DNA of 54,808 nt from an uncultured bacterium (GTDB taxonomy: Bacteria; Electryoneota; Electryoneia; Electryoneales; Electryoneaceae), in contig CAYOKT010000006.1 in NCBI GenBank assembly GCA_964404605.1, forward strand, positions 2,005 to 56,812, in the 5' to 3' direction. Shown here one piece after another: positions 1 to 18,512 of the stretch; position 1 is the first letter of the stretch; each line of letters starts with the position of its first letter. Position numbers and translations under genes: made by a program. The notes under the pieces are model-generated. The model ran no database searches. It saw only the letters and a list, made by a program, of their open reading frames with translations, and was not told where the DNA came from.

Positions 1-186
1 GGTCAGGGGATGTTGGTAGGCCGCCGCATCGAGGGACCCGGTTTCCGCGGCCGCGGTCCCGGCGGCGCCCTCCACCGGTGCGGTGGCGTTCTCCCCGCCC
101 GCCAGCAGGCGCGAGGCCGGCAGCCCGGCGACCCCGAGGGCGGCGATCCCGGCCGCCTTGATGAACTTTCTCCGGTCCACGATCAT
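1..186 (-). CDS. dsrO: DsrO, periplasmic Fe-S subunit of the DsrMKJOP complex (N-terminal fragment, cut by window edge)
   Basis: Not in the ORF track. Minus-strand translation from the ATG at 186 reads MIVDRRKFIKAAGIAALGVAGLPASRLLAGG, a twin-arginine (Tat) signal. The ATG overlaps the dsrJ stop as ATGA. Position after dsrJ fits the dsrMKJOP order. Confidence 0.7.
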   Translation of the reverse strand, partial: MIVDRRKFIKAAGIAALGVAGLPASRLLAGGENATAPVEGAAGTAAAETGSLDAAAYQHPLT

Positions 187-614
187 CGTGTCCCCTCCCC
201 CAGCGTCAGCGCCGCCTCCCCGGCCGCCGGCTCCGGGGCGACGTGGCAGTCCCAGCAGTAGGGCTCGACCGCGGCGTAGTCATGGCAGCGGTCGCAGAAG
301 GTGTCCTTGTTCGGGTGGCACTGCATGCAGGTGTTCGACAGGCTCATCGCGAAGCGCCGGCCATCCGGCGCGGTGTAGATCCGCCGGCCCCCGCGGACCA
401 CCTGCTCCCGCCAGTCGTTCAGCAGCTCCATGTGCGAGGTGCGCATCCTCTCCGCCTCGAGAACGCAGCGATCCTTGCCCGGCACGTCCCTGGTGGCGAT
501 CACCGGGTCCGGCGCCTCCCCGCCGCGTCCCTTCGCGGCGTCGTACCAGGCCGGGAAGGTGAAAAGCCCGATGAACAGCACCAGTCCGAGTGCGATTTTC
601 CAGGTGTCACGCAT
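183..614 (-). CDS. dsrJ: DsrJ, trihaem cytochrome c of DsrMKJOP
   Basis: 143 aa with an N-terminal hydrophobic anchor and three CxxCH motifs (CMQCH, CDRCH, CWDCH). Lies between dsrK and dsrO, with an 8-nt overlap with the dsrK end. Confidence 0.85.
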   Translation of the reverse strand: MRDTWKIALGLVLFIGLFTFPAWYDAAKGRGGEAPDPVIATRDVPGKDRCVLEAERMRTSHMELLNDWREQVVRGGRRIYTAPDGRRFAMSLSNTCMQCHPNKDTFCDRCHDYAAVEPYCWDCHVAPEPAAGEAALTLGEGTR

Positions 615-2262
615 CCTTCGCGCCCTCCATCGCCGGCGCCTGCAATTCCTTCAACTCCTCGTAGGGGGTGCCCCGCAGGTCGGTTTCCCGCGGCTTTTCG
701 CCCTTCATCACGAGGGCGTTGCCGACCATCTCGTGAATTCCCCCGACCTCGACGCCCGGCACCCAGTACTCGAGCAGCGGGGGCAGGGTCGCCTTGTCGA
801 TGGCGCAGATGCAGAGGAGCAGGTTGACGCCGTGCTTGTCATGCACCCACTTCACCGCGTTGGCGCGCGGCAGGCCTCCCCGCAACCGCATCTCCATGTT
901 CTCGTCGGTCCCGAGCCCCGCGCCCGAGCCGCAGCAGAAGGTCTGCTCGCGGATGGTGTTCTCCGGCATCTCGTGGAAGCTGTTGCAGACATTGCGGATG
1001 ACATACCGCGGCTCCTCCAGCAGCCCCATCCCCCGCGCCGGGTTGCAGGAGTCATGGAAGGTGACCCGCCAGTGGTCGTTGCGGCCCGGGTCCAGCTTCA
1101 ACTTGTTGTGCCTGATCAGGTCGGAGGTGAACTCGCAGATGTGCACCATCTTCGTCGATTTCGCGTGCTCGAACACCGTGCCGGTGATCGGGGAGCGGGG
1201 CACCTCGAGGTGGTCCGCCGGGCCGTTCATCGTGCCCATGTACTGGTGGACGACGCGCCACATGTGGCCGCATTCCCCGCCGAGGATCCACTTCACCCCC
1301 AGCCGCTTCGCCTCCGCGTACATCTTGGCGTTCAACCGCTTGACCATCTCGTGGCTGTGGAAGAGCCCGAAGTTGCCCCCCTCGCTGGCGTAGGTGCTCC
1401 AGGTGTAGTCGAGGCCGATCTCGTGGAAGAGGGCGAGGTAACCCAGCAGGGTGAAGTAGTGCGGGCTGGCGAAATAGTCCGCCGAGGGGGCGATGAACAG
1501 CACCTCGGCCCCCTTGCGGTTGATCGGCAGGTCCACCTTGATCCCGGTGATGTCCTCGAGTTCATCCCGGGCGAACTCCAGGCTGTCGACCACGCCGTGC
1601 GGCTGGATGCCGAGGTGGTTCCCGGTGCGGAAGCAGTTGGCGACCGGGGTCAGGATCCAGTCGATGCCGACGCCGATCAGGGCGAGCAGCTCCCGGGCGA
1701 TCATCGTGATCTCGGCGGTGTCGATCCCGTAGGGACAGAACACGGAGCAGCGGCGGCACTCGGTGCACTGGAAGAAGTAGAAGAACCACTCCTTGAGCAC
1801 CTCCTCGGTCAGCTCCCGCGCGCCGACCATCTTGCCCATCAGCTTGCCGGCGAGGGAATAGTCCCGGCGGTAGACGGAGCGGAGCAACTCGGCGCGCATC
1901 ACCGGCATGTTCTTCGGATCGCCCGACCCGAGGAAGTAGTGGCACTTGTCCGCGCAGGCGCCGCAACGGACGCAGATGTCGAGGAAGATGCGCAGCGAGC
2001 GGAAGCGGTCCAGCCGCTCGCGAAGCCCCTCGAGGATGATCTCGCGCCAGTTCTCCGGCAGCTGCCAGTCCTCCTGGTAGGGCTGCCACCTGCGCGGATT
2101 GGGCAGGTCGAGAACCTCCAGCGCCTTCGGGTCCGCCGCGTAACAGTAGCTCCCCTTCCGCTTATCGAAATCGATCGCGGGGTTCAACCAGTCGCGCCGC
2201 GGCGGAGAGTAGTCGATGTTCAGCAGGTCTTCCCGCTTGATCTTCTCCTCGGACATGGTCAC
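607..2262 (-). CDS. dsrK: DsrK, HdrD-like catalytic Fe-S subunit of DsrMKJOP
   Basis: 551 aa with ferredoxin-type Cys clusters (CVRCGACADKC, CTECRRCSVFC) and a CCG-type motif (FCCGSGAG). Start overlaps the dsrM stop (ATGA). Confidence 0.92.
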   Translation of the reverse strand: MTMSEEKIKREDLLNIDYSPPRRDWLNPAIDFDKRKGSYCYAADPKALEVLDLPNPRRWQPYQEDWQLPENWREIILEGLRERLDRFRSLRIFLDICVRCGACADKCHYFLGSGDPKNMPVMRAELLRSVYRRDYSLAGKLMGKMVGARELTEEVLKEWFFYFFQCTECRRCSVFCPYGIDTAEITMIARELLALIGVGIDWILTPVANCFRTGNHLGIQPHGVVDSLEFARDELEDITGIKVDLPINRKGAEVLFIAPSADYFASPHYFTLLGYLALFHEIGLDYTWSTYASEGGNFGLFHSHEMVKRLNAKMYAEAKRLGVKWILGGECGHMWRVVHQYMGTMNGPADHLEVPRSPITGTVFEHAKSTKMVHICEFTSDLIRHNKLKLDPGRNDHWRVTFHDSCNPARGMGLLEEPRYVIRNVCNSFHEMPENTIREQTFCCGSGAGLGTDENMEMRLRGGLPRANAVKWVHDKHGVNLLLCICAIDKATLPPLLEYWVPGVEVGGIHEMVGNALVMKGEKPRETDLRGTPYEELKELQAPAMEGAKDA

Positions 2263-3251
2263 TCCTTCTCCACGGGCAGCCCGGCCGCCTTCATCACGTC
2301 ACGGAACTCGTCTTCGTATTCCTCGTAGGTGTGCACTTTCACCGGGTAATTCCACGGGTTGACATGACGCCGCGTGCGGTTGTCGTTCGCCATGTTCCGC
2401 GTGGGACTGAGGAAGATGCCCGGCATGTGCATCAGCTTGCTGAAGGGGAAGTAGACCAGCAGCGTCGAGACGAGGAACAGGTGGAGATAGAACAGAACGC
2501 CCACCCCCTCCGGCACCACCGGATGACCGCTGAGCAGCCCCATCACCAGGTGCTTGACCTCGATCAGGTCCACCTTCGTGAAGTACCTCATCAGCACGCC
2601 GGTGGTCCCGATCGCGAGCAGCAACAGGAGCGGGAAATAGTCGCCGGTGAGGGAGAGGAGGCTCACCTTCGCATCGGCCAGTCGGCGATAGAGCAGGTAG
2701 AGAAGCGCCGCGGGGAAGAGTATGTCGGTGATGTAGATGACCGGCAGTCCGACCTGGAAGAAGCCGTCTACGCTCTCGATGGCGGCGACGAAGCCGGGCA
2801 TCGGCTCGGTGAAGAAGCGGAAGTGACGGATGACGATGACCAGCATCGACCAGTGGAAAGCCATCGCCCCGAACCAGAGCCACACACTCGTGCCGTACGC
2901 CAGCTTCGGCCCCTGCCTCAGCTCCGCCTTCGTGTTGCGAAACAGGGAGCGGAAGAGCAGCACTTCCATCGCCATCCGCCCGATCACTCCCCAGGCGCCC
3001 GTGGGCGCCTCGAAACGGTCGTGCCGGATCCACGGCAGGGCCTTCTGCTGGCCGCATGTGGTGGTGATCTTGAAGGGCACCGGCGTGCGCGCCCAGCGGA
3101 CGACCCGCAGCACGAAGCCGACGAGGAACACCACCGCCGCCAGGGCCGGCACGCCGACGGCGAACACCGCCCGCAGCCATCCCACCTCCGCGCCCACGGT
3201 GGCCAGCGCGAGCAGAATCAACACGACCAGCAGCGAAAACCAGAATCTCAT
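2259..3251 (-). CDS. dsrM: DsrM, membrane dihaem-b (NarI/HdrE-like) subunit of DsrMKJOP
   Basis: Track ORF 2259..3329 trimmed to the internal ATG at 3251 (MRFWFSLLVVLILLALA), which abuts the upstream gene's stop. Polytopic hydrophobic protein directly upstream of dsrK. Confidence 0.88.
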   Translation of the reverse strand: MRFWFSLLVVLILLALATVGAEVGWLRAVFAVGVPALAAVVFLVGFVLRVVRWARTPVPFKITTTCGQQKALPWIRHDRFEAPTGAWGVIGRMAMEVLLFRSLFRNTKAELRQGPKLAYGTSVWLWFGAMAFHWSMLVIVIRHFRFFTEPMPGFVAAIESVDGFFQVGLPVIYITDILFPAALLYLLYRRLADAKVSLLSLTGDYFPLLLLLAIGTTGVLMRYFTKVDLIEVKHLVMGLLSGHPVVPEGVGVLFYLHLFLVSTLLVYFPFSKLMHMPGIFLSPTRNMANDNRTRRHVNPWNYPVKVHTYEEYEDEFRDVMKAAGLPVEKE

Positions 3252-3844
3252 CAGGCGCCACCTCCCCCGTTGCCGTTCCCGGCGCGGGTGCCGTTGTTCA
3301 TGCAGCGATCCCCCTGCTTCCAGGTGCACCCCTCCTCCACCGCCCAGGAGGGCGCCTGGGCGCGGCGGAGGATCTGTTCGCCCGCCCGACGGAGCTCCCC
3401 CTCGCGGAGCTGGTAGATCTCCTCGCGGCAGTTCATGAACAGGTCGAAGGCGTGCAGGGCGAGGCGGTCCACCCGCGACTCGAAGGCGAGCAGCTCGGCG
3501 AATCGGCCCTCCCGCTCCACCTCCCCGGCGACCTCCTCGCGCACCACTTTCTTCAGCAGGAAGATGAACCCCACCGCCTCCGCAGGGCTGAAGTCCTGCA
3601 CGGCACGGATGCGGACGATGCCGTCCAGGACGCGTTGCAGCCGCTCCTCCTCTTCCATCCCCCCCAGCAGCATGTCGTACAGCGCGGCCGTACTCTCCTC
3701 GAAGACAGCCCCCATCGGGTTCCGGAAGCGGTCACCCGTCCGTTTCAGATACGTAACGGCGTACGGGGGATAGGTATCGAAGAGATGAGACCTCCAGGCC
3801 GTGAGAATGGAGGGTTTCCGTTCGCGTAAGAGGTCCTCAAGCAT
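3251..3844 (-). CDS. dsrT: RsbRD N-terminal-domain protein, DsrT-like
   Basis: 197 aa. The N-terminal ~150 aa match my recollection of the RsbRD_N/DsrT pattern (FRNPMG, IRIRAVQDFSPAEAVGFIFLLKKVV). Sits immediately upstream of dsrM, as dsrT does in dsrTMKJOP loci. Gly/Asn-rich C-terminal tail. Assignment is from motif memory, not a search. Confidence 0.55.
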   Translation of the reverse strand: MLEDLLRERKPSILTAWRSHLFDTYPPYAVTYLKRTGDRFRNPMGAVFEESTAALYDMLLGGMEEEERLQRVLDGIVRIRAVQDFSPAEAVGFIFLLKKVVREEVAGEVEREGRFAELLAFESRVDRLALHAFDLFMNCREEIYQLREGELRRAGEQILRRAQAPSWAVEEGCTWKQGDRCMNNGTRAGNGNGGGGA

Positions 3845-3927
3845 CAGCCTCTCCTTTCGCCGTCATATCGGACCGGAGTGGCGGCAACTACCGCAGGAAC
3901 GCTCAATCTTTTACGCTTGCGTGTGAA

Positions 3928-3945
3928 CCCTTTCACGAGAAAGGG
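3928..3945 (-). terminator. Short hairpin between the TPR gene and the dsrT-like gene (possible weak terminator or processing site)
   Basis: CCCTTTC-ACGA-GAAAGGG, a perfect 7-bp stem in a locally lower-GC spacer. No clear U-tract on the minus strand. Confidence 0.3.
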
Positions 3946-3973
3946 TGCAACACGCCTTTTCACTCTCCACCCG

Positions 3974-4504
3974 TCAGGACGCCTCCGCGGGCGAGGCGAA
4001 GCGAACGCCGGCCTCGACGGCGAGCCGCTCGTATTTCTTCGCCTCGTTTTCCCTGCCCAGGGCGTGGTGCGACCGGGAGAGGGCCGCCAGCGCGACGGGA
4101 TGCTTCGGTTCGACCCGCAGCACGCGCTCCATCTCCCCGATGCACTCCTCGTAGCGCCCGAGGAGGTACAGCGCCATGCCCAGGTTGGAGCGGGCGGCCA
4201 GGAGGTTCGGGCTCGTTTCGAGGAGCGTGCGGTTCTCCGCCGCCGCCGCCTCGTAGTCGCCGAGGTGGAACAGGGCGACGGCGAGGTTCATCCTCGCCGG
4301 AACCAGCGCGGGATCCCGGGAGAGCGCTTCCCGGAAGGAACGCGTCGCTTCCCGCAACTGCTCCGCCTTCACCTGGGCGAGACCGAGCTGGAGCCAGGTG
4401 GAGGCGGGCGCATCGCCGCCGGCCACCGCCTCCAGCAGCGGTTCCACCGTGCGGCGGATCAGCGCGCGGCGCATCTCCTCCCTCGTCGGCATCTTGATCG
4501 CCAT
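3974..4504 (-). CDS. Tetratricopeptide-repeat (TPR) protein
   Basis: Track ORF 3974..4777 trimmed to MAIKMPTREEM at 4504, because the longer form would overlap dsrN. About 3-4 TPR-like units (WLQLGLAQVKAEQLREATRSFREAL, NLAVALFHLGDYEAA, NLGMALYLLGRYEECI). Confidence 0.7.
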   Translation of the reverse strand: MAIKMPTREEMRRALIRRTVEPLLEAVAGGDAPASTWLQLGLAQVKAEQLREATRSFREALSRDPALVPARMNLAVALFHLGDYEAAAAENRTLLETSPNLLAARSNLGMALYLLGRYEECIGEMERVLRVEPKHPVALAALSRSHHALGRENEAKKYERLAVEAGVRFASPAEAS

Positions 4505-4571
4505 GCCTTCTCCCGCTTTTCCAGGCGCCCCAACCCCGGGAACTTCGTCGTCGCTGCGGAAGTGCGCCGCC

Positions 4572-5984
4572 TCAGGCGTCGCGACGCGACCGGCGGTGCC
4601 GCTCCGCCGCCGCGACCAGCCCCGCCGCCCATTCGCGCTGCCCGGCGGCGTGGACATGGGTGTAGAGGGCCAGCGTGTTGCCCGCGAGCAACCCGTCACG
4701 TCCGCCGCCGACCCCTGCCCCCCGCTCCAGCTCGAGGGCCGTCCACTCCCCGAGAGTCCCCTCCAGCATCTCGACATGGGAATGGTGGAACTCGTGGCCG
4801 CGGATCTCGGTCCCGACGGGATACACGGGGTTCGGCCGGTCCACGCGGCCGATGGTGTAGCCGTGTCCCGTCGGCCGGTCCGACCACCCCACCTCCACGG
4901 GGAGCACCCCGGCCATCGGGTAGTTCCGCCCGCGGAAGGCGATGCGCCGGGTGAGCAGCATCAGCCCGCCGCACTCGGCGTAGATCGGCAGCCCCGCCTC
5001 CGCCGCCCGGCGCAGCGAGGCGAGGAACCCGGTGTTGGCGGCGAGCCGCTCCGCATGGGTCTCCGGGAAGCCGCCGCCGATGTAGAGCGCATCCAACTCC
5101 CCGGGCAGCCCGCTGTCCGCGAGGGCGCTCACGGTGACCAGTTCCGCACCCTCCCCCCGCAGCGCCTCGAGGTTCTCGGGGTAATAGAAGGGGAAGGCGG
5201 CGTCCCGCAGCACGCCGATACGCGGCGGCTCCCCGGCCGGCCGGGCCTCCTTGCCGCCCGGGCCCGCCTCCCCCGCCGCGTCCGGCGGCGGGAACTCCCG
5301 CAGGCGGGCGTGCAACGCCTCGAGGTCCAGATGCTCCTCGACCAGCCGCCGCGCCTCCGCGACGGCTTCGGCCGCCTCGGGGTGTTCGTCCGTGGTGAGC
5401 AGCCCGAGGTGGCGGCCGGGGATCATCTTCTCCCCGCGAACGCGCGGGATCGCCCCCAGCACCGGCAGCCCGGTGACGCTCTCGATGGCCTCTCCCGCCA
5501 CGTTCCGGTGGCGCGAACCCCCGACACGGTTGAGGATGACGCCGGCGAACTTCAAGCCGGGGTCGAGTTTCACCGCGCCGAGGACCAGCGCGGCGGCGGT
5601 GCGGGTCATCTTGGTGACATCCACCACCAGGAGAACCGGCACGTCGAGCAGGCGGGCGAGGGCCGCGGTGCTGTGCGTCCCCGCGGCATCCATGCCGTCA
5701 AAGAGCCCGCGGTTCCCCTCGATGAGGGCGAGATCCGCGCCGGGCGCGTGCCGCCGCCAGGTGTCCCGTATGGTCCGGCCGCTCATCAGGAAACTGTCGA
5801 GGTTGCGGCAGGGGACTCCCGCCGCGAGCGACAACCAGGCGGCGTCGATGTAATCGGGTCCCTTCTTGAAGGGGATGACCCGCAGCCCCTTTCGCACCCA
5901 TGCGGCGGCCAGCCCCAGCGAGACAAGCGTTTTACCCGAATCTCCGCTGAGGCCGGCCACCATCACGGATGCATGACCGTTCAT
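4572..5984 (-). CDS. dsrN: DsrN, cobyrinate a,c-diamide synthase (CbiA/CobB) homologue, proposed sirohaem amidase
   Basis: P-loop MVAGLSGDSGKT, CbiA-like N-terminal ATPase half and C-terminal glutamine amidotransferase half (YAECGGLM). Adjacent to dsrC. Start is either the ATG at 5984 or the GTG at 6002, which overlaps the dsrC end. Confidence 0.8.
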   Translation of the reverse strand: MNGHASVMVAGLSGDSGKTLVSLGLAAAWVRKGLRVIPFKKGPDYIDAAWLSLAAGVPCRNLDSFLMSGRTIRDTWRRHAPGADLALIEGNRGLFDGMDAAGTHSTAALARLLDVPVLLVVDVTKMTRTAAALVLGAVKLDPGLKFAGVILNRVGGSRHRNVAGEAIESVTGLPVLGAIPRVRGEKMIPGRHLGLLTTDEHPEAAEAVAEARRLVEEHLDLEALHARLREFPPPDAAGEAGPGGKEARPAGEPPRIGVLRDAAFPFYYPENLEALRGEGAELVTVSALADSGLPGELDALYIGGGFPETHAERLAANTGFLASLRRAAEAGLPIYAECGGLMLLTRRIAFRGRNYPMAGVLPVEVGWSDRPTGHGYTIGRVDRPNPVYPVGTEIRGHEFHHSHVEMLEGTLGEWTALELERGAGVGGGRDGLLAGNTLALYTHVHAAGQREWAAGLVAAAERHRRSRRDA

Positions 5985-5992
5985 CGCCGGGA

Positions 5993-6310
5993 TCAGACGC
6001 ACCCGGTCGGCTTCGGCAGCCCCGCCACCTTGCAGGCTCCCTTCGCGGGGCCGGAGGGGAACAGCTCATAGATCCGCTTCAGCGGAAAGCCGGTCTCCTT
6101 GCAAAGCTTGCGAACCATCGGGGCGATCCCGAACTGCTGGTAGTAGTTGCGGAGATAGTTGACGACTTTCCAGTGCTCCTCGGTCATCTCCGAGACACCT
6201 TCGGTTTCGGCGAGGGCTTTCGCCACTGCCTCACTCCAGACATCGGGGTCCTGAATGAAGCCGTCCTCGTCGACTTCAACCGAAATCCCGGCAGCTTCGA
6301 AGGTCGGCAT
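5993..6310 (-). CDS. dsrC: DsrC, sulfur-trafficking substrate protein of DsrAB (TusE/DsrC family)
   Basis: 105 aa from the ATG at 6310, preceded by AAGGTGG. C-terminal arm CKVAGLPKPTGCV carries both conserved cysteines of bona fide DsrC. Confidence 0.93.
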   Translation of the reverse strand: MPTFEAAGISVEVDEDGFIQDPDVWSEAVAKALAETEGVSEMTEEHWKVVNYLRNYYQQFGIAPMVRKLCKETGFPLKRIYELFPSGPAKGACKVAGLPKPTGCV

Positions 6311-6391
6311 AGTCCCACCTTTCCTGTTGCGCATGCCCCCGGCATGCATTGTTCACGCGATGGCTGTAGAAAGAACTTGTCAACACCTGTT

Positions 6392-8080
6392 TTACTTCAT
6401 CTCGATGTACCCGCAGGGGCAAACCTCCGAGCACTTCTTGCACCCCGTGCAGAACTCCAGCTTGAAGGTGTACTTCTCACCCGGCCGGAGGGGTTTTACA
6501 ATCGCCTGGTCCTGGCAGTAGGCCCAGCATTCGCCGCACTCGATGCAGTAGCCGCAGCTCATACAGCGCGCCGCCTCGAACACCGCCTCCTCCTGGGTCA
6601 GGGTGCGGGTGATCTCCCGGTCGCCCTCCTTCAATCGCACTTCGACCGGGAGCTGTTCGATCTCCTTGCGAAGCTGCTGCTCGAAGTGGTCGAGCAGGAT
6701 CCTGTCCTCCTTGATGAGGGGCGGCTTCTCATCCTTCGCCAGCGGCAGGCCGCGGAACCGGGCGTGAATCGTGTCCGCCGCGCGGCGGCCCTGGTAGAGG
6801 GCGATGGTCACCAGGCCAAGCTCGAGCACATCTCCCCCGACGACGACGTGGTCGTCGCCCGTCTGCATGAACTCGTCCGCCTTCGCCCACTCCTTCGGTC
6901 CCGCCTTGATCTTCTCGAGCCCCTCGAAGTCCGGCTCCTGGCTGATGGACGGGATGAAGAAGGTGCACTCGAGGTCGAAGAACTCATCGATCGGCACCGG
7001 CCTGCGGCGGCCCGACTCGTCCGGCTCGCCGAGCTTCATCTTCTGGCAGCGGAGCCCGACCGCGCGGTCGCCCTCGGTGTACACCTTCACCGGGGCGGCG
7101 AGGAAGATGAAGTTGACCCCCTCCTCCTCCGCGCCGACGATCTCCTCCTCGATGGCGGGCATCTCGTTGCGCGTCCGGCGGTAGACGATGGTCACCTCCG
7201 CGCCGAGGCGGAGGCTCACCCGGGCGGCGTCGATCGCCGTGTCCCCTCCGCCGACGACCACCACCTTGTCACCCACCTCCGGCGGATACCCCGTGTTGAC
7301 AAGGTTGAGAAAGCCGGTGCCGGTGGAGACATTCTCCGCATCCTCTCCCTCGATACCCATCTTACGGCCCTTGTGGGCGCCGATGCCGACGAAGACGGCG
7401 TCGTACTCGTCCCGCACCTTGTCGAAGGGGATGTCCTTGCCGACGGCGACATTCGTCCTCAGCTCCACCCCGAGGTCGAGGATCCGCTGGATCTCCGCGT
7501 CGAGCACCTCGCGCGGCAGGCGGTAGGCCGGGATGCCGTAACGCAGCATGCCGCCGGGGCTGGAGAACGCCTCGAAGACCGTGACCCCGTACCCTCTCTT
7601 CGCGAGATGGTAGGCGCAGTTCAGCCCGGCGGGGCCGGAACCGATCACCGCCACCTTCTCCTCGCGCGGCTGGTAATCGGGGTCCTTTTTCAATTCGAAC
7701 TTGTGGTCCAGTCCCCAGTCGCCGAGGAAACGCTCGAGGGCGTTGATCGACACCGCGCCGTCCTTCACCTTGCGGTTGCATTCCCCTTCGCAAGGGTGGG
7801 GGCAGACCCGCCCGCAGACCGCGGGGAAGGGGTTCTTCTCGGTGAGGATCTCCCAGGCCCGGGTGAAGGCCTCATCGAGGGAGATGCCGTGTTTCTCGTG
7901 CAGGCTGATGGTGTTGATCACCCCGCGGATGTCCGTGCCCTGGGGGCAGCCGGCCATGCAGGGAGCCAGTTTTTCCAGATGGTAGGGCCGCAGGTCCGAC
8001 ACTTCCTTCGAGGAAGCGCCCCCGTGCCCCGCGAGGGCGGTGGCACTGAGCTTCTTTTTCTTGGTCCTCTTGATCGGCAT
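6392..8080 (-). CDS. dsrL: DsrL, GltD-like NAD(P)H:acceptor Fe-S flavoprotein with C-terminal ferredoxin domain
   Basis: 562 aa. N-terminal Cys clusters (CMAGCP, CGRVCPHPCEGEC), two Rossmann motifs (VAVIGSGPAG, VVVVGGGDTA), YRR at residues 300-302, and a C-terminal 2x[4Fe-4S] ferredoxin domain (CMSCGYCIECGEC, CTGCKKCSEVCP). Confidence 0.85.
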   Translation of the reverse strand: MPIKRTKKKKLSATALAGHGGASSKEVSDLRPYHLEKLAPCMAGCPQGTDIRGVINTISLHEKHGISLDEAFTRAWEILTEKNPFPAVCGRVCPHPCEGECNRKVKDGAVSINALERFLGDWGLDHKFELKKDPDYQPREEKVAVIGSGPAGLNCAYHLAKRGYGVTVFEAFSSPGGMLRYGIPAYRLPREVLDAEIQRILDLGVELRTNVAVGKDIPFDKVRDEYDAVFVGIGAHKGRKMGIEGEDAENVSTGTGFLNLVNTGYPPEVGDKVVVVGGGDTAIDAARVSLRLGAEVTIVYRRTRNEMPAIEEEIVGAEEEGVNFIFLAAPVKVYTEGDRAVGLRCQKMKLGEPDESGRRRPVPIDEFFDLECTFFIPSISQEPDFEGLEKIKAGPKEWAKADEFMQTGDDHVVVGGDVLELGLVTIALYQGRRAADTIHARFRGLPLAKDEKPPLIKEDRILLDHFEQQLRKEIEQLPVEVRLKEGDREITRTLTQEEAVFEAARCMSCGYCIECGECWAYCQDQAIVKPLRPGEKYTFKLEFCTGCKKCSEVCPCGYIEMK

Positions 8081-8274
8081 GGTGTACTCCCTCGTGTCAC
8101 CGGACCGTGCTGCGTTGCCGAAGTACCGGCCCGATACTCACACTTCTCCCGCCGACCCGGTTCGCCGCGACCGGGCCCGACGGCCCGGCCGCGACGTGTG
8201 CGGCCCTCCGGCGCCCCCCACGGCGGGAACCGGGCAAAACCGGCTCCCCTCGTCCGCGGGCCGCACAACGGCGC

Positions 8275-8526
8275 CTACTCGTTCGCGGCGCCCTCCGAGT
8301 GCGGAATCTCGATGTAACTGCCGCCGAAATAGGTGTAGACACACCTGCCGCTGTCGATCAGGCTCCGGATCGCAGCCTTGCAGAGCTTCTTGTCCACACC
8401 CTCCTCGCCGTGCAGCTTGAGGATCGATTTGGTCACATCCATCGGCTTCAGCTTCTTCTTCACCTCAGCCGCTTCGGCGATCATCTTGTACATCTCATCG
8501 GCGACCTGGTCCAGGGTCATCGCCAT
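8275..8526 (-). CDS. dsrD: DsrD, small winged-helix protein associated with reductive DsrAB
   Basis: 83 aa, starting 13 nt after the dsrB stop. Lys-rich stretch (KKKLKPMDV) and C-terminal SGRCVYTYFGGSYIEI resemble the Desulfovibrio DsrD pattern (KSKFYFND, EYWSSGSTTMYG), recalled from memory. Confidence 0.75.
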   Translation of the reverse strand: MAMTLDQVADEMYKMIAEAAEVKKKLKPMDVTKSILKLHGEEGVDKKLCKAAIRSLIDSGRCVYTYFGGSYIEIPHSEGAANE

Positions 8527-8539
8527 GACGTACCTCTCG

Positions 8540-9637
8540 TCAATCCCACGGTTCGTGGGTCAGATGAGCCGACCGCTTGAAGCTCAGTCCGGCGTGCTTG
8601 AAGTCGTCAATGTGCTCCTTGCGGAACTCGAAGCCCGTCAACCGGAAGAACCGCGGCCAGCCTACTCGCTCGATCCATTCGCCCACCCGCTCGTGCGGCC
8701 GGGCGTTGTCGGCCCACACCTCGACAATCTTCTTCACCGCCTGGACCACCTCGGGCCAGCGCGGCGGGTTGTTCGGAATGTACGGCACCGCCAGCTTCGA
8801 GAACTTGGGCTCGCTGCGGGCGTTGGACACCTTGCCGCCGACCCAGATGCTGACGCCGTCGTTCTCCGCGTCGTTCAACGGCATCGCCGGGCAGACGGTG
8901 TAGCAGTTGGCGCAGAACATGCAGTTCTCCTCGATCACCTCGACCGAGGGCTTGCCGTCCACCGTCGCCGGGCGGATCGCCGCCGTCGGGCAGGAGGCCG
9001 AGACGTTCGGGATCTCGCAGAGTTTGTTCAGGTTTTCGTGGTCGATCCTCGGCGGCAGGCGGTGGACGCCGAGAATGGCGATGTCGCTGCAGTGCACCGC
9101 GCCGCACATGTTCAGGCAGCAGGCGAGGGCGATCCGGCACTTCCCGGGCAGCTTCTTCGTGCCGTCGAAGTAGTCGAACAGCTCGTCCATCACCGCCTTG
9201 ACGATTCCGCTGGCGTCGGTGGCCGCGCTGTGGCAGTGCACCCACCCCTGCGTGTGCACGATCGAGGTGATCGCATAGCCGATGCCGCCCGCCGGGTGGC
9301 CGGCCGCCGCCATCTCCTCCTTGATCTTCGCCACGTTCTCCTTCTTCGTCGTCATCATCTCGACGTTGTGACGGCTGGTGAAGCGCAGGTGACCGTCACA
9401 GTACTTGTCCGCGATGTCGGCGAAGAAGCGGATCTTGTCGATCGAAATCAGGCGCGGTGACGCACAGCGCACGGTGTATACGGCGTCCCCGGACTCGGCG
9501 ACGTGCACCATCACCCCGGGTTCGAGGATCTCGTGGTACTTCCACTTCCCGTAGTTCTTCTTGATGACGGGGGGAAGAAAGTTTTCGTAGTTCGGCGGCC
9601 CGATGTCGGTCAGCCGCTCCTGCATGGCCTCTGGCAT
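8540..9637 (-). CDS. dsrB: Dissimilatory sulfite reductase beta subunit
   Basis: 365 aa. Sirohaem/Fe-S Cys motifs ([20 protein letters not shown]) and an inserted ferredoxin domain ([18 protein letters not shown]). Strong SD (AAGGAG) before the ATG. Confidence 0.95.
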
Positions 9638-9705
9638 TTCCTATCTCCTTGTCGCGTTGTTGCAAGCTTCTGTGATCCCTCAAGCCGCGTTGCCCCACGG
9701 GACCA

Positions 9706-10905
9706 CTACTCTTCCTCTTCTTCCTCCTCGTCCATCTCGAAGAAGATGTAGGGGTTGTCGCGCGGATAGGCGACCATTTCCGGGATCGGTTCGACACCGA
9801 CCGCCTCGAGGAAGTTGCCCAGGCCGACGCGCTGGATGAACTCGCCGATACGCTCGCGGTTCTTGCCCTCTTCGCACCAGACGTCCTGCATCTCCTCCAT
9901 CAGGTCGTACCAGGCCTCCACCTCTTCCTCGTCGTCCATCTTCAGGAAGGGGATGAGTACGCTGGAGAGGAGCGCGCCCTCGACGATGGGAGCCTTGGAG
10001 CCGATGAGGATGGTCGCGCCGCGGTCGTCGCCCGGACGGAGCGCCTTCGGCATCACGTTGATGCAGTGCATGCAGCGGCGGCAGTCACGGTTGTCGATCT
10101 CCAGCTCCTCGCCGGTCCACCTCATGCACTTCGCCGGGCAGTTGAGCACCACCTCGTTGACGATGTCGAGGCCGTCCGCGACATACTGCCGCACCGCCTC
10201 CTGGTCCACCTTGATGTCGTCCCGCCAGGTGCCGATGATCGAGATGTCGGAACGGGCGATGGAAGCGACACAGTCGTTCGGGCAGCCGGAGAACTTGAAC
10301 TTCCACTTGTAGGGGAAAGCCGGGCGGTGCAGCTCGTCCTGGTAGCGCATCGTCGTCTGGTAGCACATCTTGAGGGTGTCGTAGCACGCCCATTCGCAGC
10401 GCGCCGGGCCGACACAGGCGCTCGGGGTGCGCACATCCGACCCGGAGCCGCCGAGGTCGAACCCGAGCTTGGTCAGCTCGGCGAAGGTCGGCTCCAGCTC
10501 CTCGGTGCGACAGCCGAGGAAGATGATGTCGCCGGTGGAGCCGTGCATGTTCGTCAGGCCGCTGCCGTGACGCTCCCAGATGTCGCACAGGCCGCGCAGC
10601 GCCTCGGAGGTGTAGAACCATCCCGTGGGCATGTTGACCCGCAACGTGTGGAAGTGGGACACATGGGGGAATTCCTCGGGCAGATCGGTGTAGCGCCCGA
10701 TCACCCCGCCGCCGTAGCCGAGCACCCCGACGATGCCGCCGTGCTTCCAGTGCCCGATCCGCTCCTCGTAGGAACGCTCAAGAATGCCGAGCAGGTCGTT
10801 CGACATCTCGTTCTTCTCGGCGGCTTGCTTGATTTCCTTGACGAAACTGGGCCATGGTCCCTTCTCCAGCTCGTCAAGCATGGGTGTTTCGTACGTCTTT
10901 GACAT
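9706..10905 (-). CDS. dsrA: Dissimilatory sulfite reductase alpha subunit
   Basis: Track ORF trimmed to [21 protein letters not shown] at 10905, preceded by GGAGGAG. Typical DsrA motifs ([38 protein letters not shown]). Unusual DEEEEEEE C-terminus. Confidence 0.95.
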
Positions 10906-10975
10906 AACTCCTCCTAAGCCTGTCCACCGCGCGGTGCGAAGCGGGACCCTCGCCACGCCCACGCCCTGTTTATCC

Positions 10976-12568
10976 TCAGTGTATCGCGTCCCAGTAATGC
11001 CTGAAGACCACCGTCGAGAGGAAATAGCCCAGCGGGACGTTGACCAGCACGCCGGCGCTGAAGGCATAGAGCGGCTTCATCCCGAAGGTGGCGAGTTCCT
11101 TGAACCGCGTCGAAAGCCCGATGGAGAGGAAGCAGAAGACGAAGGCCCAGCTCCGCAGCTTCTTCACCGGGGTGATCAGTTTCGGTCGCAGGACTCCCTC
11201 GAACCAGTCGCTGGCCCGGCGGAGCTGCGCCAGCGCCCAGCGCTGGTCCTCCGTCGCGGCCGCGGCCTGCAACTTCCTCAGGTCCGCCGCGCTCATCTTC
11301 CGGCGGAAGGCGATCGTCCCCTTCTCCGCGTCATACAGGAAAAGCCCGGCATACCCCGCGGGGACCTGGTAGGTCGAGAAATCGGCGTCGTAGGAGATCT
11401 TCACCGCCTTCGACTTGAACACCCCCCGCACCGGGGCGACGCCGACGTACTCTTTCGGCGCCGAGGAGGCGACGACACTCATCAGAACCGACGCGAAGAA
11501 AAACCCGAAGACGAACTTGGGAAAGCGCTCCCAGATGACCCCCGCTCCCACCGCGCGCTTCCCGTTGTCCGCCGACCTCTCCCAGAAGGCCACCGAGACG
11601 ATGGAGAGGACCAGCGCCCAGATGCCGATCCAGATGTCGCGGCCGATGACCTTCATCAGGGTGAAGGTCTGCACCGGCGCATCGCCGTGACGGGTGGCCA
11701 GCTCGGCGACCACGGCGAACCCGGCCGCATCCGCGAACTCGCTGGTCCCCACCCAGGCCCCCGCCACGCCGGGACTCATCACGCTCGGGATCAGCGCCTT
11801 GGTGATGAAGCTGAGGGTGAAGATCATGACGATCGCCCAGAGGGAGACGATGCCGATGGAGATGGCGATCTCGTCCTTCTTCGCCCGCACCGCGCCCCCC
11901 ACGGCGATGGAGGCGGAGACCCCGCAGACCGCTCCCCCCGCGCCGAGGACCGCGCCGAACTTGGGATTGATCTTGAAAACACGGGTGGCGACGAGAAAGA
12001 TGGTCGTCCAGGTGAGGAGGCTGACGATGGTCGCCTGCAGGAAGGCGATCGGCCCCGCGCTCCAGATGAGGGTGAGCGGCAGCGTCGCCCCCAGCAGGAC
12101 GATGCCGGTCTTGATGTAGTACTCCGTGCGCAGCGCCGTCCGCATCCAGTCCGGGATGCGCACCAGGTTGCTGATGACCAGCCCGATCGCCAGCGCGAGC
12201 AGCGGCGCCCCGAGGTCATACCGCTTCATGAACTGCCAGCCGGCGAGGTAGAAGATGGCCAGCGAGCCGAGAAACACGACGATGAACCCGGGGATGTACT
12301 GCTTCAACGGTTGGCCCATGATCCCGCAGGAGAGGGTGAAAATGACCAACCAACCGCCGAAGAGGATGAGGTAAGATGGGAAATGTTTCACAAAATCGGC
12401 CGCCAACCGCCCGCCGCTGTCCCAACTTCCCGGGGTGACCGCCCAGCCGCTGATCGTCCCGCCGGCGAGGAAAACGATGAGTGCCATCAGGACGATGCCG
12501 AGGCCGAGCCAGACCGCCCACCAGTCCTCCGTCAGGACCAGCGCCTTCCAGCCCTTCGCCTGCTCCAT
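10976..12568 (-). CDS. YeiH/TauZ-family (UPF0324, putative sulfate-exporter family) membrane transporter with an inserted soluble segment
   Basis: Polytopic protein with the family-typical [25 protein letters not shown] segment. ATG at 12568 is preceded by a G-rich SD; a TTG at 12595 is also possible. Ends 70 nt upstream of dsrA on the same strand. Confidence 0.75.
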
Positions 12569-12719
12569 CGTCCCCCCCCACTCTGATTCGCCCAAGCTCC
12601 ATCATTGGAGCCGAAAGGACCACCGCCGCCCCGGACCCCGCCATCCGTTGGTCAAGGGCCCGGGCCGCGGGCGGAGAGTTCACCCCACCAATCCAACCCC
12701 CGGCGTTGCAAGCTTCAGG

Positions 12720-12833
12720 CCACAAACCTAACCTGCAAATTCTTATATCGTTAGGCTGATACCTCGTGAATTTGTGTACAAGCTATCGGCGAGGAATGTC
12801 ACCAATCAGTAACATCTACCTCGCTATCCTACT
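12720..12833 (-). promoter_or_regulatory. AT-rich intergenic segment, likely promoter region of the yeiH-like/dsrAB transcription unit
   Basis: The only clearly AT-rich stretch for kilobases, lying just after the terminator and about 150 nt upstream of the transporter start. A possible TTCACG-17 nt-TATAAG pair is present on the minus strand. No experimental support. Confidence 0.35.
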
Positions 12834-12870
12834 GGAAAAACAAACCCCTGCGAAATATGTTTCGCAGGGG
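12834..12870 (-). terminator. Rho-independent terminator (minus strand) separating the NYN gene region from the dsr locus
   Basis: Perfect 11-bp stem CCCCTGCGAAA / TTTCGCAGGGG with a 4-nt loop. On the minus strand it is followed by TTTGTTTTTCC. Confidence 0.6.
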
Positions 12871-13118
12871 TAACAGTGTTACCGTATCGTAACGTTCGTC
12901 CAAGCGGAAGACACGCTCCCGCTTCGGAATCGCGACCTCTCCCCGTTCGCCCGCCGGCGGAGCTGCGGCTATGGGGGGGCGCCGTACGCCGTACAGGCCC
13001 CGCTCCCGCCGGGACACGACCGGGTTCCGCCTCCTCGGCCGGGCAAAGCAGACAGCGGGTCCGGGCTGCGCCCGGTCGGCGCAGAGCCCGATGCCCCTTT
13101 CACGGACGCGGGTCCGGG

Positions 13119-13709
13119 CTATGCCCGGTTGGCGTAGTGCTCGACGCTCTCGTGGTTGCCGATGAAGATGTCCTCGAGGATCTCCTCGCTGAGGTGGAAC
13201 ACCTTGTCGGCGCGCGTGGCGAGCGACTCCGACAGCCCGCGCGGGAAGAAGGCCGTGTCGACCTCGAGACCCATCTCCTTGCCGTACTCGACGACCTCCG
13301 CGAGGTCCTTGTCGCCGGAGACGATCACCGCCACTTCGCAGGCATGGTTGACCGCGAGGCGTACGAGGTCGATGGCCAGCTTGACATCGAGGCCCTTCTC
13401 CACCGCGTAATGCTTGCGTCCGCCTGTCTCTTCCCCGCGGACCTGGTAGTAGACCAGCTTGCCGAGACGAAGGGTGAGGTGCTGCGTGTGGGCAAGATGG
13501 GTGATGAAGCGCTGCTGTTTTTCGTAGTTCTCGGGATCGAAGTCGGGGTCCACCTTGGCGTTGTAATAGTAGATCCTCAGCAGTTCCCCTTCGGCCAGTT
13601 CGGCCATCTTCTTTCCGAACCGATAGAAGTCAACATCCATCCGGCCGATGTTGTCGCGCAGCCCGTTGTAGAAGTTGCTTCCATCGATGAAGACCGCGAC
13701 ACGTTTCAT
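13119..13709 (-). CDS. NYN-domain (LabA/DUF88-like) protein, predicted RNase-fold
   Basis: Track ORF trimmed to MKRVAVFIDGSNFYNG at 13709. NYN hallmarks present: FIDGSN near the N-terminus and IVSGDKDL later. Confidence 0.8.
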   Translation of the reverse strand: MKRVAVFIDGSNFYNGLRDNIGRMDVDFYRFGKKMAELAEGELLRIYYYNAKVDPDFDPENYEKQQRFITHLAHTQHLTLRLGKLVYYQVRGEETGGRKHYAVEKGLDVKLAIDLVRLAVNHACEVAVIVSGDKDLAEVVEYGKEMGLEVDTAFFPRGLSESLATRADKVFHLSEEILEDIFIGNHESVEHYANRA

Positions 13710-14141
13710 GATTGTACCTGCTCGGTTGGAGGTTCGTGCGAGCGGCGGGAGGTTACCATCGGCGATTCCATCAAGTGTATCATTATCCCGGCCGCCAGAA
13801 ACCCGGCTCCCGTTCCCTGCTTTCCATAGTGGGGCAGTGGGCAAGAATACCCTGAAAGCTGGCGCAAGTCAAGTGCTCCCGTATTCTCCTGCTCCGTGCG
13901 GGCGACGGTCCGCAAGCATCTATTGACACGTTCCGTCCGGCCGGTTCGTTCCCATCCACCCTTCGCGCCGGGGCCGGGAGTCTCGCGCGCGCAGGGTCAC
14001 GAAGGCGGCCCGGCGGCGTTGTCCCCATGCCGGGGATTTCGTAGCTTTCGTATCACGCCGGCCCGCCGGGGCGCGCGGTCCGGCGCAACCTCCTCCCCGG
14101 CGCTTTTCCACGCTCCCGCGGGATCCGAAGATGAGGGCGGC

Positions 14142-14618
14142 ATGCGCATCAGCGAACTCCTGGATGAGAAGACCCTCCTGATTCCCTTCGAGGCCGCATC
14201 GAAGGAGGAGGCGATCGAGGCGCTGGTGGACCGGCTCGCCGCCGCGGGGCGCATCCCGGACCGCGACGCCGCCCTCGAGGCCGTGCTGGCGCGTGAGCGC
14301 GCGCTCTCCACCGGGGTCGGCGGAGGAATCGCCGTGCCCCACGCCACCCTGGCGGGCCTGAAGGGCCCCGCGCTCGCCCTCGGCCGGCTCGAGGAGGGAA
14401 TCGAGTTCGACTCCGTGGACGGGCAGGGCGTGCGCCTCATCTTCCTCCTCGTCGTTCCCCGTGAAGAGCTGACCCTGCACCTGCGGCTGCTCAGCCGGAT
14501 CAGCCGCCTGTGCAACAACGGCGAGCTGCACAAGACCCTGCTCGAAGCTCCGGACGCCGGGACACTCCTCTCGGCGATTCGCGGGGCGGAAGAGGAACAC
14601 CGGGACCGTCACGGGTGA
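14142..14618 (+). CDS. PTS EIIA type-2 domain protein (PtsN/EIIA-Ntr-like regulator)
   Basis: 158 aa from the ATG at 14142 (MRISELLDEKTLLIPFEA). Contains STGVGGGIAVPHA with the phosphorylatable His context. Confidence 0.8.
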   Translation: MRISELLDEKTLLIPFEAASKEEAIEALVDRLAAAGRIPDRDAALEAVLARERALSTGVGGGIAVPHATLAGLKGPALALGRLEEGIEFDSVDGQGVRLIFLLVVPREELTLHLRLLSRISRLCNNGELHKTLLEAPDAGTLLSAIRGAEEEHRDRHG

Positions 14619-16375: not shown

Positions 16376-16406
16376 CCACACCGGACGGGCTTCCCGGCTC
16401 ACGATT

Positions 16407-16429
16407 CCGCCTTGTCGTGGGGAAGGCGG
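16407..16429. terminator. Hairpin between convergent genes (possible bidirectional terminator)
   Basis: CCGCCTT-9 nt-AAGGCGG in the 78-nt gap between the symporter stop and the OMP gene stop. No strong U-tract. Confidence 0.3.
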
Positions 16430-16453
16430 AGGCGCTGTCTATAGGGGACCTGC

Positions 16454-17242
16454 TTACCCTCCGAAGGCGAAGCCGATGCGGAACCACAGGTCGCGCATGT
16501 TCACATCCGGACCGTTGCCCGTCAGCTTGCCCTCATCAATCCGCCAGCGATCGACAACCAGCGTATCGAACTGCACGCCGACCGCTCCGTCCAGCGCCAA
16601 CCAGTCCAGGATGTGCACCCGCGCGCCGACATAGGGCCGGAAGAAGAAAAAGGCCTGTGTGACCTTGGTGCCGATGTTCCGCCCATCCACCAGTGTCGTG
16701 CCGGTATACTGGTGGGTGATGTCGTCCCAGGTGACCGACCCCTCGTTCTGCAGCAGCTCGATCTCGACCCCGCCGCCGCCGATCACTCCGCCGAGGCCGA
16801 AGTTCACCGGGCCGACCATCCAGGGCGAATACTCCACCAGGAATCCGCCGCCGCCATAGCGCAAGTTCATCTCGCGCTTGAACTTGTCCCCGTTGAGGTA
16901 GACCACGCCATCCGTCCTCGCGGAGTAGCCCCAGCCTTCGCCGCCGACACGCCAGCCGCCGCCGACATAGCCCATGCCGTGGCCCCCGAAGCCCACGAGG
17001 GCGTCGTTCAGGTGATCGATGCCCATCGCGTCTGCGAGGCTCTTCAGCGCGCTGCCGTCATAGTTCAGGTAGCTGAAAAAGAAGCCGCCATGCCCGTTGA
17101 AGCCGGCATGACTCCGCCGTGTGCGCCAGGTTTTCCACTCGAAGTTGTTCTCCTCGCCGGCCACGGCCGACTGCGGCAGCGACATGCCGGCCAGCAGCAG
17201 AACCGCCGCCAGCCCGATCAACCCCTGCTTCGTCCGGTTCAT
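16454..17242 (-). CDS. Predicted outer-membrane beta-barrel protein (function unknown)
   Basis: Trimmed to MNRTKQGLIGLAAVLLLAGMSLPQSAVA (signal peptide). Gly/aromatic-rich alternating strands and a C-terminal WFRIGFAFGG. Confidence 0.6.
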   Translation of the reverse strand: MNRTKQGLIGLAAVLLLAGMSLPQSAVAGEENNFEWKTWRTRRSHAGFNGHGGFFFSYLNYDGSALKSLADAMGIDHLNDALVGFGGHGMGYVGGGWRVGGEGWGYSARTDGVVYLNGDKFKREMNLRYGGGGFLVEYSPWMVGPVNFGLGGVIGGGGVEIELLQNEGSVTWDDITHQYTGTTLVDGRNIGTKVTQAFFFFRPYVGARVHILDWLALDGAVGVQFDTLVVDRWRIDEGKLTGNGPDVNMRDLWFRIGFAFGG

Positions 17243-17702: not shown

Positions 17703-17734
17703 GGTATTACATTGGTGATACAACAGGTATACAA
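17703..17734 (+). promoter_or_regulatory. Putative operator of the toxin-antitoxin promoter: three direct repeats
   Basis: GGTATTACA, GGTGATACA and GGTATACAA start 11-12 nt apart, 23-54 nt upstream of the antitoxin ATG. Confidence 0.4.
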
Positions 17735-17756
17735 CGAGTCACCGAAAGAGGCAATC

Positions 17757-18387: not shown

Positions 18388-18512
18388 CGAAACAGCGAAG
18401 AGCAAGACTTCCCTGAAGAAGCGTCATCTAAAGTAAGTGAGCTTACAAGAAGCGGCCCAGTCGTCTTTCCCAGACTCCCACAGGAAGTAGATTCCCGCCT
18501 TTGCTGGCACGG

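Follow-up and report, generated by a model that had tools for sequence, protein, structure and literature searches.

The 54,808-nucleotide stretch analysed here (positions 2,005 to 56,812 of contig CAYOKT010000006.1, hereafter the window) carries a real, near-complete gene cluster for sulfite reduction by the dissimilatory (Dsr) system, which we take, with a probability of about 0.8, to be an operon, all on one strand, that encodes the reductive Dsr pathway in an uncultured bacterium of the Fibrobacteres-Chlorobi-Bacteroidetes (FCB) group. Thirteen co-oriented minus-strand genes fill positions 1–12568 in the order yeiH-like, dsrA, dsrB, dsrD-like, dsrL, dsrC, dsrN, a tetratricopeptide-repeat (TPR) gene, dsrT-like, dsrM, dsrK, dsrJ and the 5′ end of dsrO, and Pfam and NCBIfam scans together with curated equivalog hidden Markov models (HMMs) bear out the genes and the order proposed in an earlier sequence-only reading of this DNA. 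That reading also held the pairing of dsrD with dsrL to be unusual, a view already overtaken by publications of 2018–2023 (PMC6338057, PMC7596348, PMC10591310). Because the pairing of a dsrD or dsrD-like gene with dsrL has been described in many such lineages and read there as reductive, the finding is an ordinary one, and the cluster is one more instance of a kind already on record.

Direct observation covers what the gene products are, to which types they belong, how their genes are ordered and that they are conserved over many genomes. Because the window has a G+C content of 67%, six-frame lists of open reading frames (ORFs) are rich in artefacts; the ORFs were passed through a codon-position GC filter and scanned with the Pfam and NCBIfam HMMs. 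Likely true gene starts and spans were taken from gene calls on public contigs 99.6–99.8% identical to the window, by comparison with which the longest ORFs overstate several genes and the apparent overlaps vanish. Relatives were sought by a DsrB scan of one genome per GTDB species, which gave at least 564; the best 80, whose DsrB is 72–83% identical to that of the window, are referred to as the related loci (numbered with the prefix L where they must be told apart), and their synteny was read by tblastn with the proteins of the window. The features of the cluster are as follows.

1–186, minus: dsrO, 5′ part only, 62 codons running off the window edge; the N-terminus, MIVDRRKFIKAAGIAALG, is a twin-arginine (Tat) signal with RRKFIK
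183–614, minus: dsrJ, triheme cytochrome c subunit of DsrMKJOP; NF038038, 157.7 bits against a cut-off of 100
607–2256, minus: dsrK, HdrD-like catalytic iron-sulfur subunit; NF045796, 734 bits against a cut-off of 400; Fer4 and CCG domains
2259–3251, minus: dsrM, membrane dihaem cytochrome b; NF038037, 510 bits against a cut-off of 300
3251–3844, minus: dsrT-like gene with an RsbRD_N domain; PF14361, 69.8 bits
3974–4504, minus: TPR-repeat gene between dsrN and dsrT, 176 amino acids (aa), length from the near-identical contigs; TPR_2, TPR_8 and TPR_1
4572–5963, minus: dsrN, CobB-like amidotransferase (sirohaem amidation); PRK01077, 426 bits against 254; CbiA and GATase_3
5993–6310, minus: dsrC, 105 aa; PF04358, 135.9 bits; TIGR03342, 123 against 53.5
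6392–8080, minus: dsrL, predicted type 2, NADP(H)-type iron-sulfur flavoprotein; PRK12771, 587 bits against 516; Fer4_20, Pyr_redox_2 and C-terminal Fer4_21
8081–8274, minus: structured, GC-rich stretch separating the dsrD-like gene from dsrL; RNA fold of -113.3 kcal/mol, z = -2.66 against shuffles
8275–8526, minus: dsrD-like gene, 83 aa, putative divergent DsrD subfamily; winged-helix model, position and reciprocal HMM matches
8540–9637 (extent of the ORF; the public gene calls begin at 9625), minus: dsrB; TIGR02066, 505 bits against a cut-off of 342
9706–10905, minus: dsrA, 399 aa from MSKTYE...; TIGR02064, 598 bits against a cut-off of 393, match from ORF residue 64
10976–12568, minus: yeiH-like membrane protein, 530 aa, leading the cluster; PF03601, 129 bits over residues 93–369

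Types of DsrAB and DsrL and the direction of the pathway

Both DsrA and DsrB pass the equivalog models for dissimilatory sulfite reductase at the scores listed above. DsrA is 64.2% identical to the enzyme of Archaeoglobus fulgidus and 61.0% to that of Desulfovibrio vulgaris (both PDB references), as against 46.5% to the oxidative rDsrA of the SUP05 phage Lau218, and by its sequence it is clearly of the reductive type, closer to reductive than to oxidative enzymes. The type comparison was made with a distance tree and the phage Lau218 rDsrA as the single oxidative reference, on which the tree was rooted. In this neighbour-joining tree the DsrA of the window groups with those of L001, L002, L003 and L025, the group adjoins Kapaibacteria and a Chocolate Pots (ChocPot) metagenome-assembled genome (MAG), and the wider clade also takes in sequences from Zixibacteria, Ignavibacteria, Kryptoniota, Elusimicrobiota, Gemmatimonadales and Planctomycetota. 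In published trees the reductive bacterial type takes in the enzymes of ChocPot, Kapabacteria and Zixibacteria (PMC7596348, PMC10591310).

DsrL is a protein of 562 aa without a long insertion, and its architecture is NfnB/GltD-like: a two-cluster domain at the N-terminus, FAD/NAD(P) domains, and a ferredoxin domain at the C-terminus. A YRR motif lies at residue 300 (IVYRRT, 298–303) in the NAD(P)-binding domain and is present in all 70 of the 70 DsrL homologues from related loci. The N-terminus reads C41-MAG-C45-PQG-T49-DI-R52, placing Thr and Arg at the third and fourth ligand positions of the distal cluster, as assigned by pattern and not by alignment with NfnB. DsrL was divided into types by Loffler 2020 (PMC7596348), where the YRR motif and NADP(H) specificity are properties of DsrL-2, the type found with reductive DsrAB and for which a dsrABDL-2 arrangement is described, and the Thr/Arg pattern is reported for the DsrL-2 accompanying reductive DsrA (PMC7596348). 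By its YRR motif and its Thr/Arg pattern the protein is thus probably the DsrL-2 of reducers, an NADPH-specific electron donor (PMC7596348).

Homologues suggest how the products may work together. DsrAB, with its sirohaem amidated by DsrN, would reduce sulfite and leave DsrC with a trisulfide on its two C-terminal cysteines; the DsrC encoded here ends in ...GACKVAGLPKPTGCV and keeps both conserved arm cysteines, the feature that tells a true DsrC from TusE/RspA. DsrMKJOP would then reduce the trisulfide with quinol-derived electrons, releasing sulfide and regenerating DsrC, and DsrT may control DsrMKJOP expression. The divergent DsrD would most likely be an allosteric activator of DsrAB, DsrL-2 would pass electrons from NADPH to DsrAB, and the PF03601 membrane protein may carry an oxidised sulfur anion across the membrane. 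For the direction of the pathway, as for the roles of DsrD, DsrL and the transporter, we draw on what is reported for these homologues.

The sequence-only reading had held that the direction cannot be read from the gene set, and this stands in so far as the reduction of sulfate, sulfite or thiosulfate and disproportionation are inseparable here; the sulfite may come from sulfate (by way of sat, apr and qmo elsewhere in the genome), thiosulfate, organosulfonates or disproportionation. It does not stand for the reductive sense of the pathway, which is supported by the DsrA type, by the YRR motif and the Arg of DsrL, and by the literature. For Kapabacteria whose genes have the same dsrABD...L arrangement, metatranscriptomes point to a reductive pathway that is active under anoxic conditions (PMC10591310, citing PMC6338057).

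Several points weigh against a reductive pathway all the same. The direction comes from markers, and the DsrAB type from a distance tree with one oxidative reference. The dsrD-like product fails curated DsrD models, with a profile-profile probability of 15% and with the DsrD structure 1UCR outside the PDB top 50, as set out in the next section. Reductive-type DsrAB and DsrD also occur within net sulfide oxidation or disproportionation, for example in Desulfurivibrio and the cable bacteria (PMC8794893, PMC10591310), and sat, aprAB and qmo were not seen in the 55 kb of genome covered.

This last absence bears on an alternative in which the cluster would serve sulfur or thiosulfate disproportionation, or the respiration of sulfite, thiosulfate or organosulfonates without sulfate activation, with DsrAB still reducing intracellular sulfite, and which we consider possible though on balance unlikely. 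The scanned ORFs, which cover nearly the whole 55-kb window, include no sat, aprAB or qmo and no dsrEFH, the same genes that the sequence-only reading had reported as missing, and there is no dsrEFH in or near the cluster. The biochemical model of DsrL-2 comes from Desulfurella amilsii, a thiosulfate and sulfur reducer (PMC7596348), and the sets of DsrAB, DsrD and DsrC with DsrL-2 found in organisms not reducing sulfate are explained in the same way by Ferreira 2022 (PMC8794893). Against this, sat-aprAB-qmo are found elsewhere in related FCB genomes that have this kind of dsr cluster, namely in Kapabacteria (PMC6338057), in Zixibacteria and AABM5-125-24 (PMC10591310) and in Electryoneota (PMC9324843, PMC10439189), and because sat, apr and qmo are unlinked to dsr in many sulfate reducers, their absence from one contig says little.

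The small gene after dsrB and its bearing on direction

The dsrD-like gene starts 13 nt after dsrB, and a homologue stands directly after dsrB in 79 of the 80 related loci. An 81-aa ORF at 8097–8342, taken up as a dsrD candidate, is spurious and belongs to the GC-rich spacer; the gene itself lies at 8275–8526. Its 83-aa product is matched by no Pfam or NCBIfam model, even at E = 0.01. A single-sequence search finds 2068 homologues, and among the top 120 of these none carries a PF08679 annotation and the named ones are deposited as "hypothetical protein". The protein and its homologues share an invariant Cys49, a YTYFGGS motif and a conserved C-terminal E-P-x-x-EGAAN tail.

The AlphaFold2 model of the protein (pLDDT, the predicted local distance difference test score, 87) has helices at residues 5–21, 28–42 and 46–59 and strands at 63–65 and 71–73, the arrangement of a winged helix. 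A Foldseek search of the PDB with this model returned generic winged-helix matches only (Fur, Z-alpha and cullin WHB, E >= 0.03), and 1UCR was not in the top 50, so that the model supports the fold class and not a specific similarity to DsrD. Both a direct sequence search and a close-homologue profile search of the PDB gave noise only. With hhalign the narrow profile A1 reached a probability of 0.2 against D. vulgaris DsrD, whose reference sequence was confirmed against 1UCR, and against a Desulfovibrio DsrD alignment, a comparison that is uninformative because the profiles are too shallow (effective sequence number, Neff, 1.5).

A broader sampling of the family brings it closer to DsrD. A profile search of 1.84 billion representatives yielded 162 clusters at 50% identity, with E down to 1e-30, and these were the source of a diverse alignment, A3. 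PF08679 matches seven of 48 full-length diverse family members (best E = 5.3e-6) and is the commonest Pfam match among them. The hhalign comparison of A3 with Desulfovibrio DsrD gives a full-length register (E = 0.0017, probability 15%) that pairs KSKFYFNDF with KKKLKPMDV and EYWSSGSTT with VYTYFGGSY. The canonical DsrD profile reaches at least 10 bits in seven of 150 family representatives and in none of 3000 shuffles; conversely, the family profile does so in 22 of 120 canonical DsrD sequences and in none of 2400 shuffles. The maximum in these reciprocal HMM searches is 21 bits, as against 8.9 bits for the shuffles (n=5,400).

We conclude that the 83-aa protein is probably a divergent subfamily of DsrD, with remote-homology support that is moderate rather than strong because of the hhalign probability of 15%. 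The failure of the curated HMMs would then be a sensitivity gap of models that are too narrow and not a sign that DsrD is absent. For the dsrD of the sequence-only reading, which had named failure of a DsrD family HMM as grounds for giving its claim up, the outcome is mixed: the protein does fail the curated HMMs, and its fold, position and reciprocal profile matches nonetheless place it in the DsrD family. The gene is already labelled dsrD in Kapabacteria and Zixibacteria (PMC6338057, PMC10591310), and DsrD is known as an allosteric activator of DsrAB that has been likened to Z-alpha domains (Ferreira 2022, PMC8794893).

The gene could instead encode an unrelated small winged-helix protein, such as a DNA-binding regulator, that is a chance neighbour of dsrB, and this we judge improbable. 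In favour of this, the protein goes unmatched by PF08679 and by any NCBIfam model, the close-homologue profile gives nothing against D. vulgaris DsrD, the Desulfobacterota motif YWSSGSTT is lacking, and the best PDB matches are Fur, Z-alpha and cullin WHB, all at E >= 0.03. Against it, the position, the length and the helix-helix-helix-hairpin order of DsrD recur in 79 of 80 loci, seven family members are called DsrD by Pfam itself, reciprocal HMM scores go up to 21 bits where no shuffle exceeds 9 bits, and the hhalign register aligns the two segment pairs given above. One of the structure matches, Z-alpha, is moreover the very domain to which DsrD has been compared (PMC8794893), and the literature label of the gene in Kapabacteria and Zixibacteria is dsrD (PMC6338057, PMC10591310).

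In nearly all of the genomes examined the gene of this subfamily has a YRR-type dsrL after it. Because the subfamily is large and invisible to the models and has this near-constant neighbour, the protein might be more than a diverged activator; one speculative idea, to which we give little credence, is that it is a specialised partner coupling DsrAB to the NADPH-dependent DsrL-2, for example by docking DsrL or by gating the route of electrons (DsrL or DsrC/DsrMKJOP). If true, such a role would be a mechanistic difference from DsrD of the Desulfovibrio type. On the practical side, calls of dsrD as "absent" that are made from Pfam PF08679 or NCBIfam would misclassify such genomes as non-reductive or ambiguous. 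Because the custom HMMs of the field already call the gene dsrD, this annotation gap is a caveat and not a discovery.

A pathway running in the oxidative direction, from sulfide or sulfur to sulfite with DsrL as electron acceptor as in sulfur oxidisers, draws on the first demonstration of DsrL as essential for sulfur oxidation, on some enzymes of the DsrL-2 subclusters 2A and 2B that work with oxidative rDsrAB (PMC7596348, PMC10591310) and on the sulfite oxidation by SoeABC proposed for some Electryoneota (PMC9324843), and is very improbable given a DsrA 46% identical to oxidative rDsrA as against 61–64% to reductive enzymes, the presence of a DsrD-family gene and of dsrT, which is reducer-specific in the literature (PMC10504309), the lack of dsrEFH in the window, and an Arg rather than a Cys at the fourth distal-cluster position of DsrL, the variant reported for DsrL-2 with reductive DsrA (PMC7596348).

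Other genes of the cluster and the surrounding genome

Of the DsrMKJOP complex, M, K and J pass their equivalog models, only the Tat-signal end of O lies in the window, and P would lie beyond its edge, as the sequence-only reading had presumed; the ~2 kb by which the public contig exceeds the window may hold dsrO and dsrP. The dsrO fragment has no Pfam match because the signal region alone is in the window; it follows dsrJ, as in L013, L025 and L034, with 47–56% identity there. DsrJ has three CXXCH motifs (residues 96, 107 and 120). DsrK has one CCG motif, at residue 441, and its start is placed at an ATG two codons within a GTG ORF. The model match of DsrM begins at ORF residue 36, and the start at M27 is that of the gene calls on the near-identical contigs, from which the length of DsrN (463 aa) is also taken; dsrN is syntenic in related loci. 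A longer dsrA ORF, extending to 11067, is an artefact.

The dsrT-like gene lies directly upstream of dsrM both here and in nearly all related loci (28–46% identity), and dsrT is known to adjoin dsrM (PMC10504309). Homologues of the TPR gene at this place are confined to the relatives nearest to the window, L001, L003 and L025 (36–38% identity), and are absent from the other ~75 related clusters. The yeiH-like protein scores far below the cut-off of the YeiH subfamily TIGR00698 (53 against 233 bits). Eight of the 80 related loci have a PF03601 homologue, 27–32% identical, beside dsrA, and in two of the eight (L002 and L025) this homologue is on the opposite strand; by analogy the protein of the window may be a transporter of sulfur anions. 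The 194 nt that part the dsrD-like gene from dsrL contain strong hairpins, among them a perfect 15-bp stem with no T-run behind it, and may be a putative processing or attenuation element that divides dsrABD from the downstream genes.

The features outside the cluster that bear on its boundary or its host, and the sizeable ORFs without a Pfam match, are these.

12844–12871, minus: terminator-like hairpin upstream of the cluster; 12-bp stem with seven G-C pairs, followed by TTGTTTTT; consensus match only
16454–17353, 18513–20375, 43282–44169, 44150–45937 and 45913–47037: five ORFs without a Pfam match
48396–50963, minus: TonB-dependent receptor with N-terminal CarboxypepD_reg (context); PF14905, PF13620, PF07715 and PF00593
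52434–54584, plus: secreted protein of the phosphatase/nuclease fold with a C-terminal domain for sorting by type IX secretion (context); PF18962, 30.3 bits against 27, and PF03372

The hairpin, with its T-rich tail, is the best terminator-like element of the region and has the NYN-domain gene on one side and the yeiH-like gene on the other. It is likely to be the end of the transcript of the preceding NYN gene, and so a predicted boundary between transcription units; a promoter and terminator scan gave, overall, no more than shuffled sequences. We note that the neighbourhood of the NYN-domain, PTS-EIIA-like and sodium:solute symporter genes at 13119–16375 is partly syntenic with L003 3410–5561, with 75% DNA identity in the symporter region.

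The genome is FCB-group-like, as the sequence-only reading had suggested from the two flanking genes, and this is supported. The type IX secretion domain (PF18962) and the CarboxypepD_reg TonB receptor (PF13620, PF07715 and PF14905) that it had described are both there, the one marking a type IX cargo and the other having a SusC-like architecture. The best named match of FabF is to Candidatus Electryonea clarkiae (71%), and the other named matches are mostly to the FCB group (Calditrichaeota, Kapabacteria, Ignavibacteria, Bacteroidota and Kryptobacter), with Desulfobulbaceae and Chloroflexota as exceptions.

The rest of the window is made up of housekeeping genes, among them fab genes, plsX, rnc, smpB, ackA, asd and lipopolysaccharide glycosyltransferases. 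Base composition and codon-position GC (GC and GC3) are even over the dsr and housekeeping genes and therefore give no sign of a chimeric contig; this uniformity disfavours both a chimera and a recent horizontal acquisition of the dsr genes. In tRNA and Rfam scans of the window a tRNA-Glu(CTC) at 48269–48342 was the sole RNA gene detected, and no tmRNA was found near smpB. The five ORFs without a Pfam match (299, 620, 295, 595 and 374 aa, in the order listed) have gene-like codon-position GC. The same population is also present in JGI metagenome 3300010330, in ENA assembly ERZ27245762 and in SRA runs SRR15988951-53 (L082, L083 and L085–L087); these are short contigs, each of which breaks within the dsr cluster, and the DNA identity to the window is 99.6% for the JGI contig L082 and 99.8% for the SRA contig L085.

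Comparison with known clusters

A cluster of the form dsrA-dsrB-small gene-(dsrN)-dsrL-dsrC-dsrT-dsrM-dsrK-dsrJ is found in nearly every related locus long enough to show it, and the genomes that carry it include Zixibacteria, Ignavibacteria, Kapaibacteria, Gemmatimonadota and others. In most of them dsrN stands before dsrL. The window order L-C-N-TPR-T is common to L001, L003 and L025, and to L002 as far as its sequence reaches; L003 (MAG26) also has the upstream NYN-domain gene (82% protein identity), a co-oriented PF03601 gene and the symporter region. In L020 (CP070766.1, the Zixibacteria bin25 chromosome), we note a dsrA-dsrB-dsrD(like)-dsrN arrangement at 8769–21077, with dsrL, dsrC, dsrT and dsrMKJ not within ~10 kb downstream, in contrast to almost all the other relatives.

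Much of this has been described. Thiel 2019 (PMC6338057) reported dsrAB-dsrD-dsrN-hyp-dsrL-dsrC in Kapabacteria, and the joint occurrence of dsrD with dsrL was then called unusual. Sets of DsrAB, DsrD and DsrL-2 were explained as reductive or disproportionating by Ferreira 2022 (PMC8794893), and Neukirchen 2023 (PMC10504309) noted consecutive DsrABDNCTMKJOP clusters with dsrT adjoining dsrM. [quoted passage not shown] With the present cluster a further high-GC population of the FCB group joins the many uncultured bacteria already listed as having a reductive Dsr pathway with DsrL-2, and the sole mildly useful by-product is that the Pfam and NCBIfam models of DsrD miss the DsrD subfamily of such lineages.

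The clusters of Kapabacteria ("Ca. Thermonerobacter thiotrophicus", the ChocPot MAG) and Zixibacteria, which belong to the DsrD + DsrL-2C group of Diao 2023, have in common with that of the window a reductive DsrAB (DsrA 72–77% identical) followed by the same small DsrD-like protein (45–68% identical), a YRR-type DsrL (53–62% identical), DsrC, DsrN, DsrT and DsrMKJ(OP), all on one strand. They differ in gene order, which is A-B-D-L-C-N-TPR-T-M-K-J-O in the window and A-B-D-N-L-C-T-M-K-J in most relatives of this type, and the window has an extra TPR gene and a leading PF03601 gene, which it has in common with its nearest relatives alone (L001, L002, L003 and L025). Its G+C content is 67%, as against 35–59% in those loci.

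With the oxidative clusters of Allochromatium vinosum and the Chlorobi (rdsrAB-EFH-C-MK-L-JOP-N...) the window shares the presence of dsrL, dsrN, dsrC and dsrMKJ(OP) together. Those clusters have an oxidative rDsrAB, DsrEFH and DsrL-1 (or DsrL-2A/2B) and are without dsrD and dsrT, whereas that of the window has a reductive-type DsrAB, no dsrEFH, and DsrD-like and DsrT-like genes.

The dsrABD genes of Desulfovibrio vulgaris (1UCR, PF08679) resemble those of the window in having a winged helix of ~80 aa encoded right after dsrB, with a Lys-rich segment before helix 2 and an aromatic-x-aromatic-G/S-G/S-S pattern in the hairpin. In contrast to D. vulgaris DsrD, the protein of the window is missed by PF08679, its helix 2 is ~5 residues longer, it has YTYFGGSY in place of YWSSGSTT, and it carries the invariant Cys49 and the conserved C-terminal E-P-x-x-EGAAN tail; Desulfovibrio, moreover, is without DsrL. 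The Electryoneota (= AABM5-125-24) are, like the host of the present cluster, of the FCB group, being a candidate phylum with a full Dsr pathway that includes dsrD and dsrL type 2 (PMC10591310), and their dsr operons have been treated by Youssef 2019 (as cited) and Williams 2022 (PMC9324843) and drawn by Vigneron 2023 (PMC10439189).

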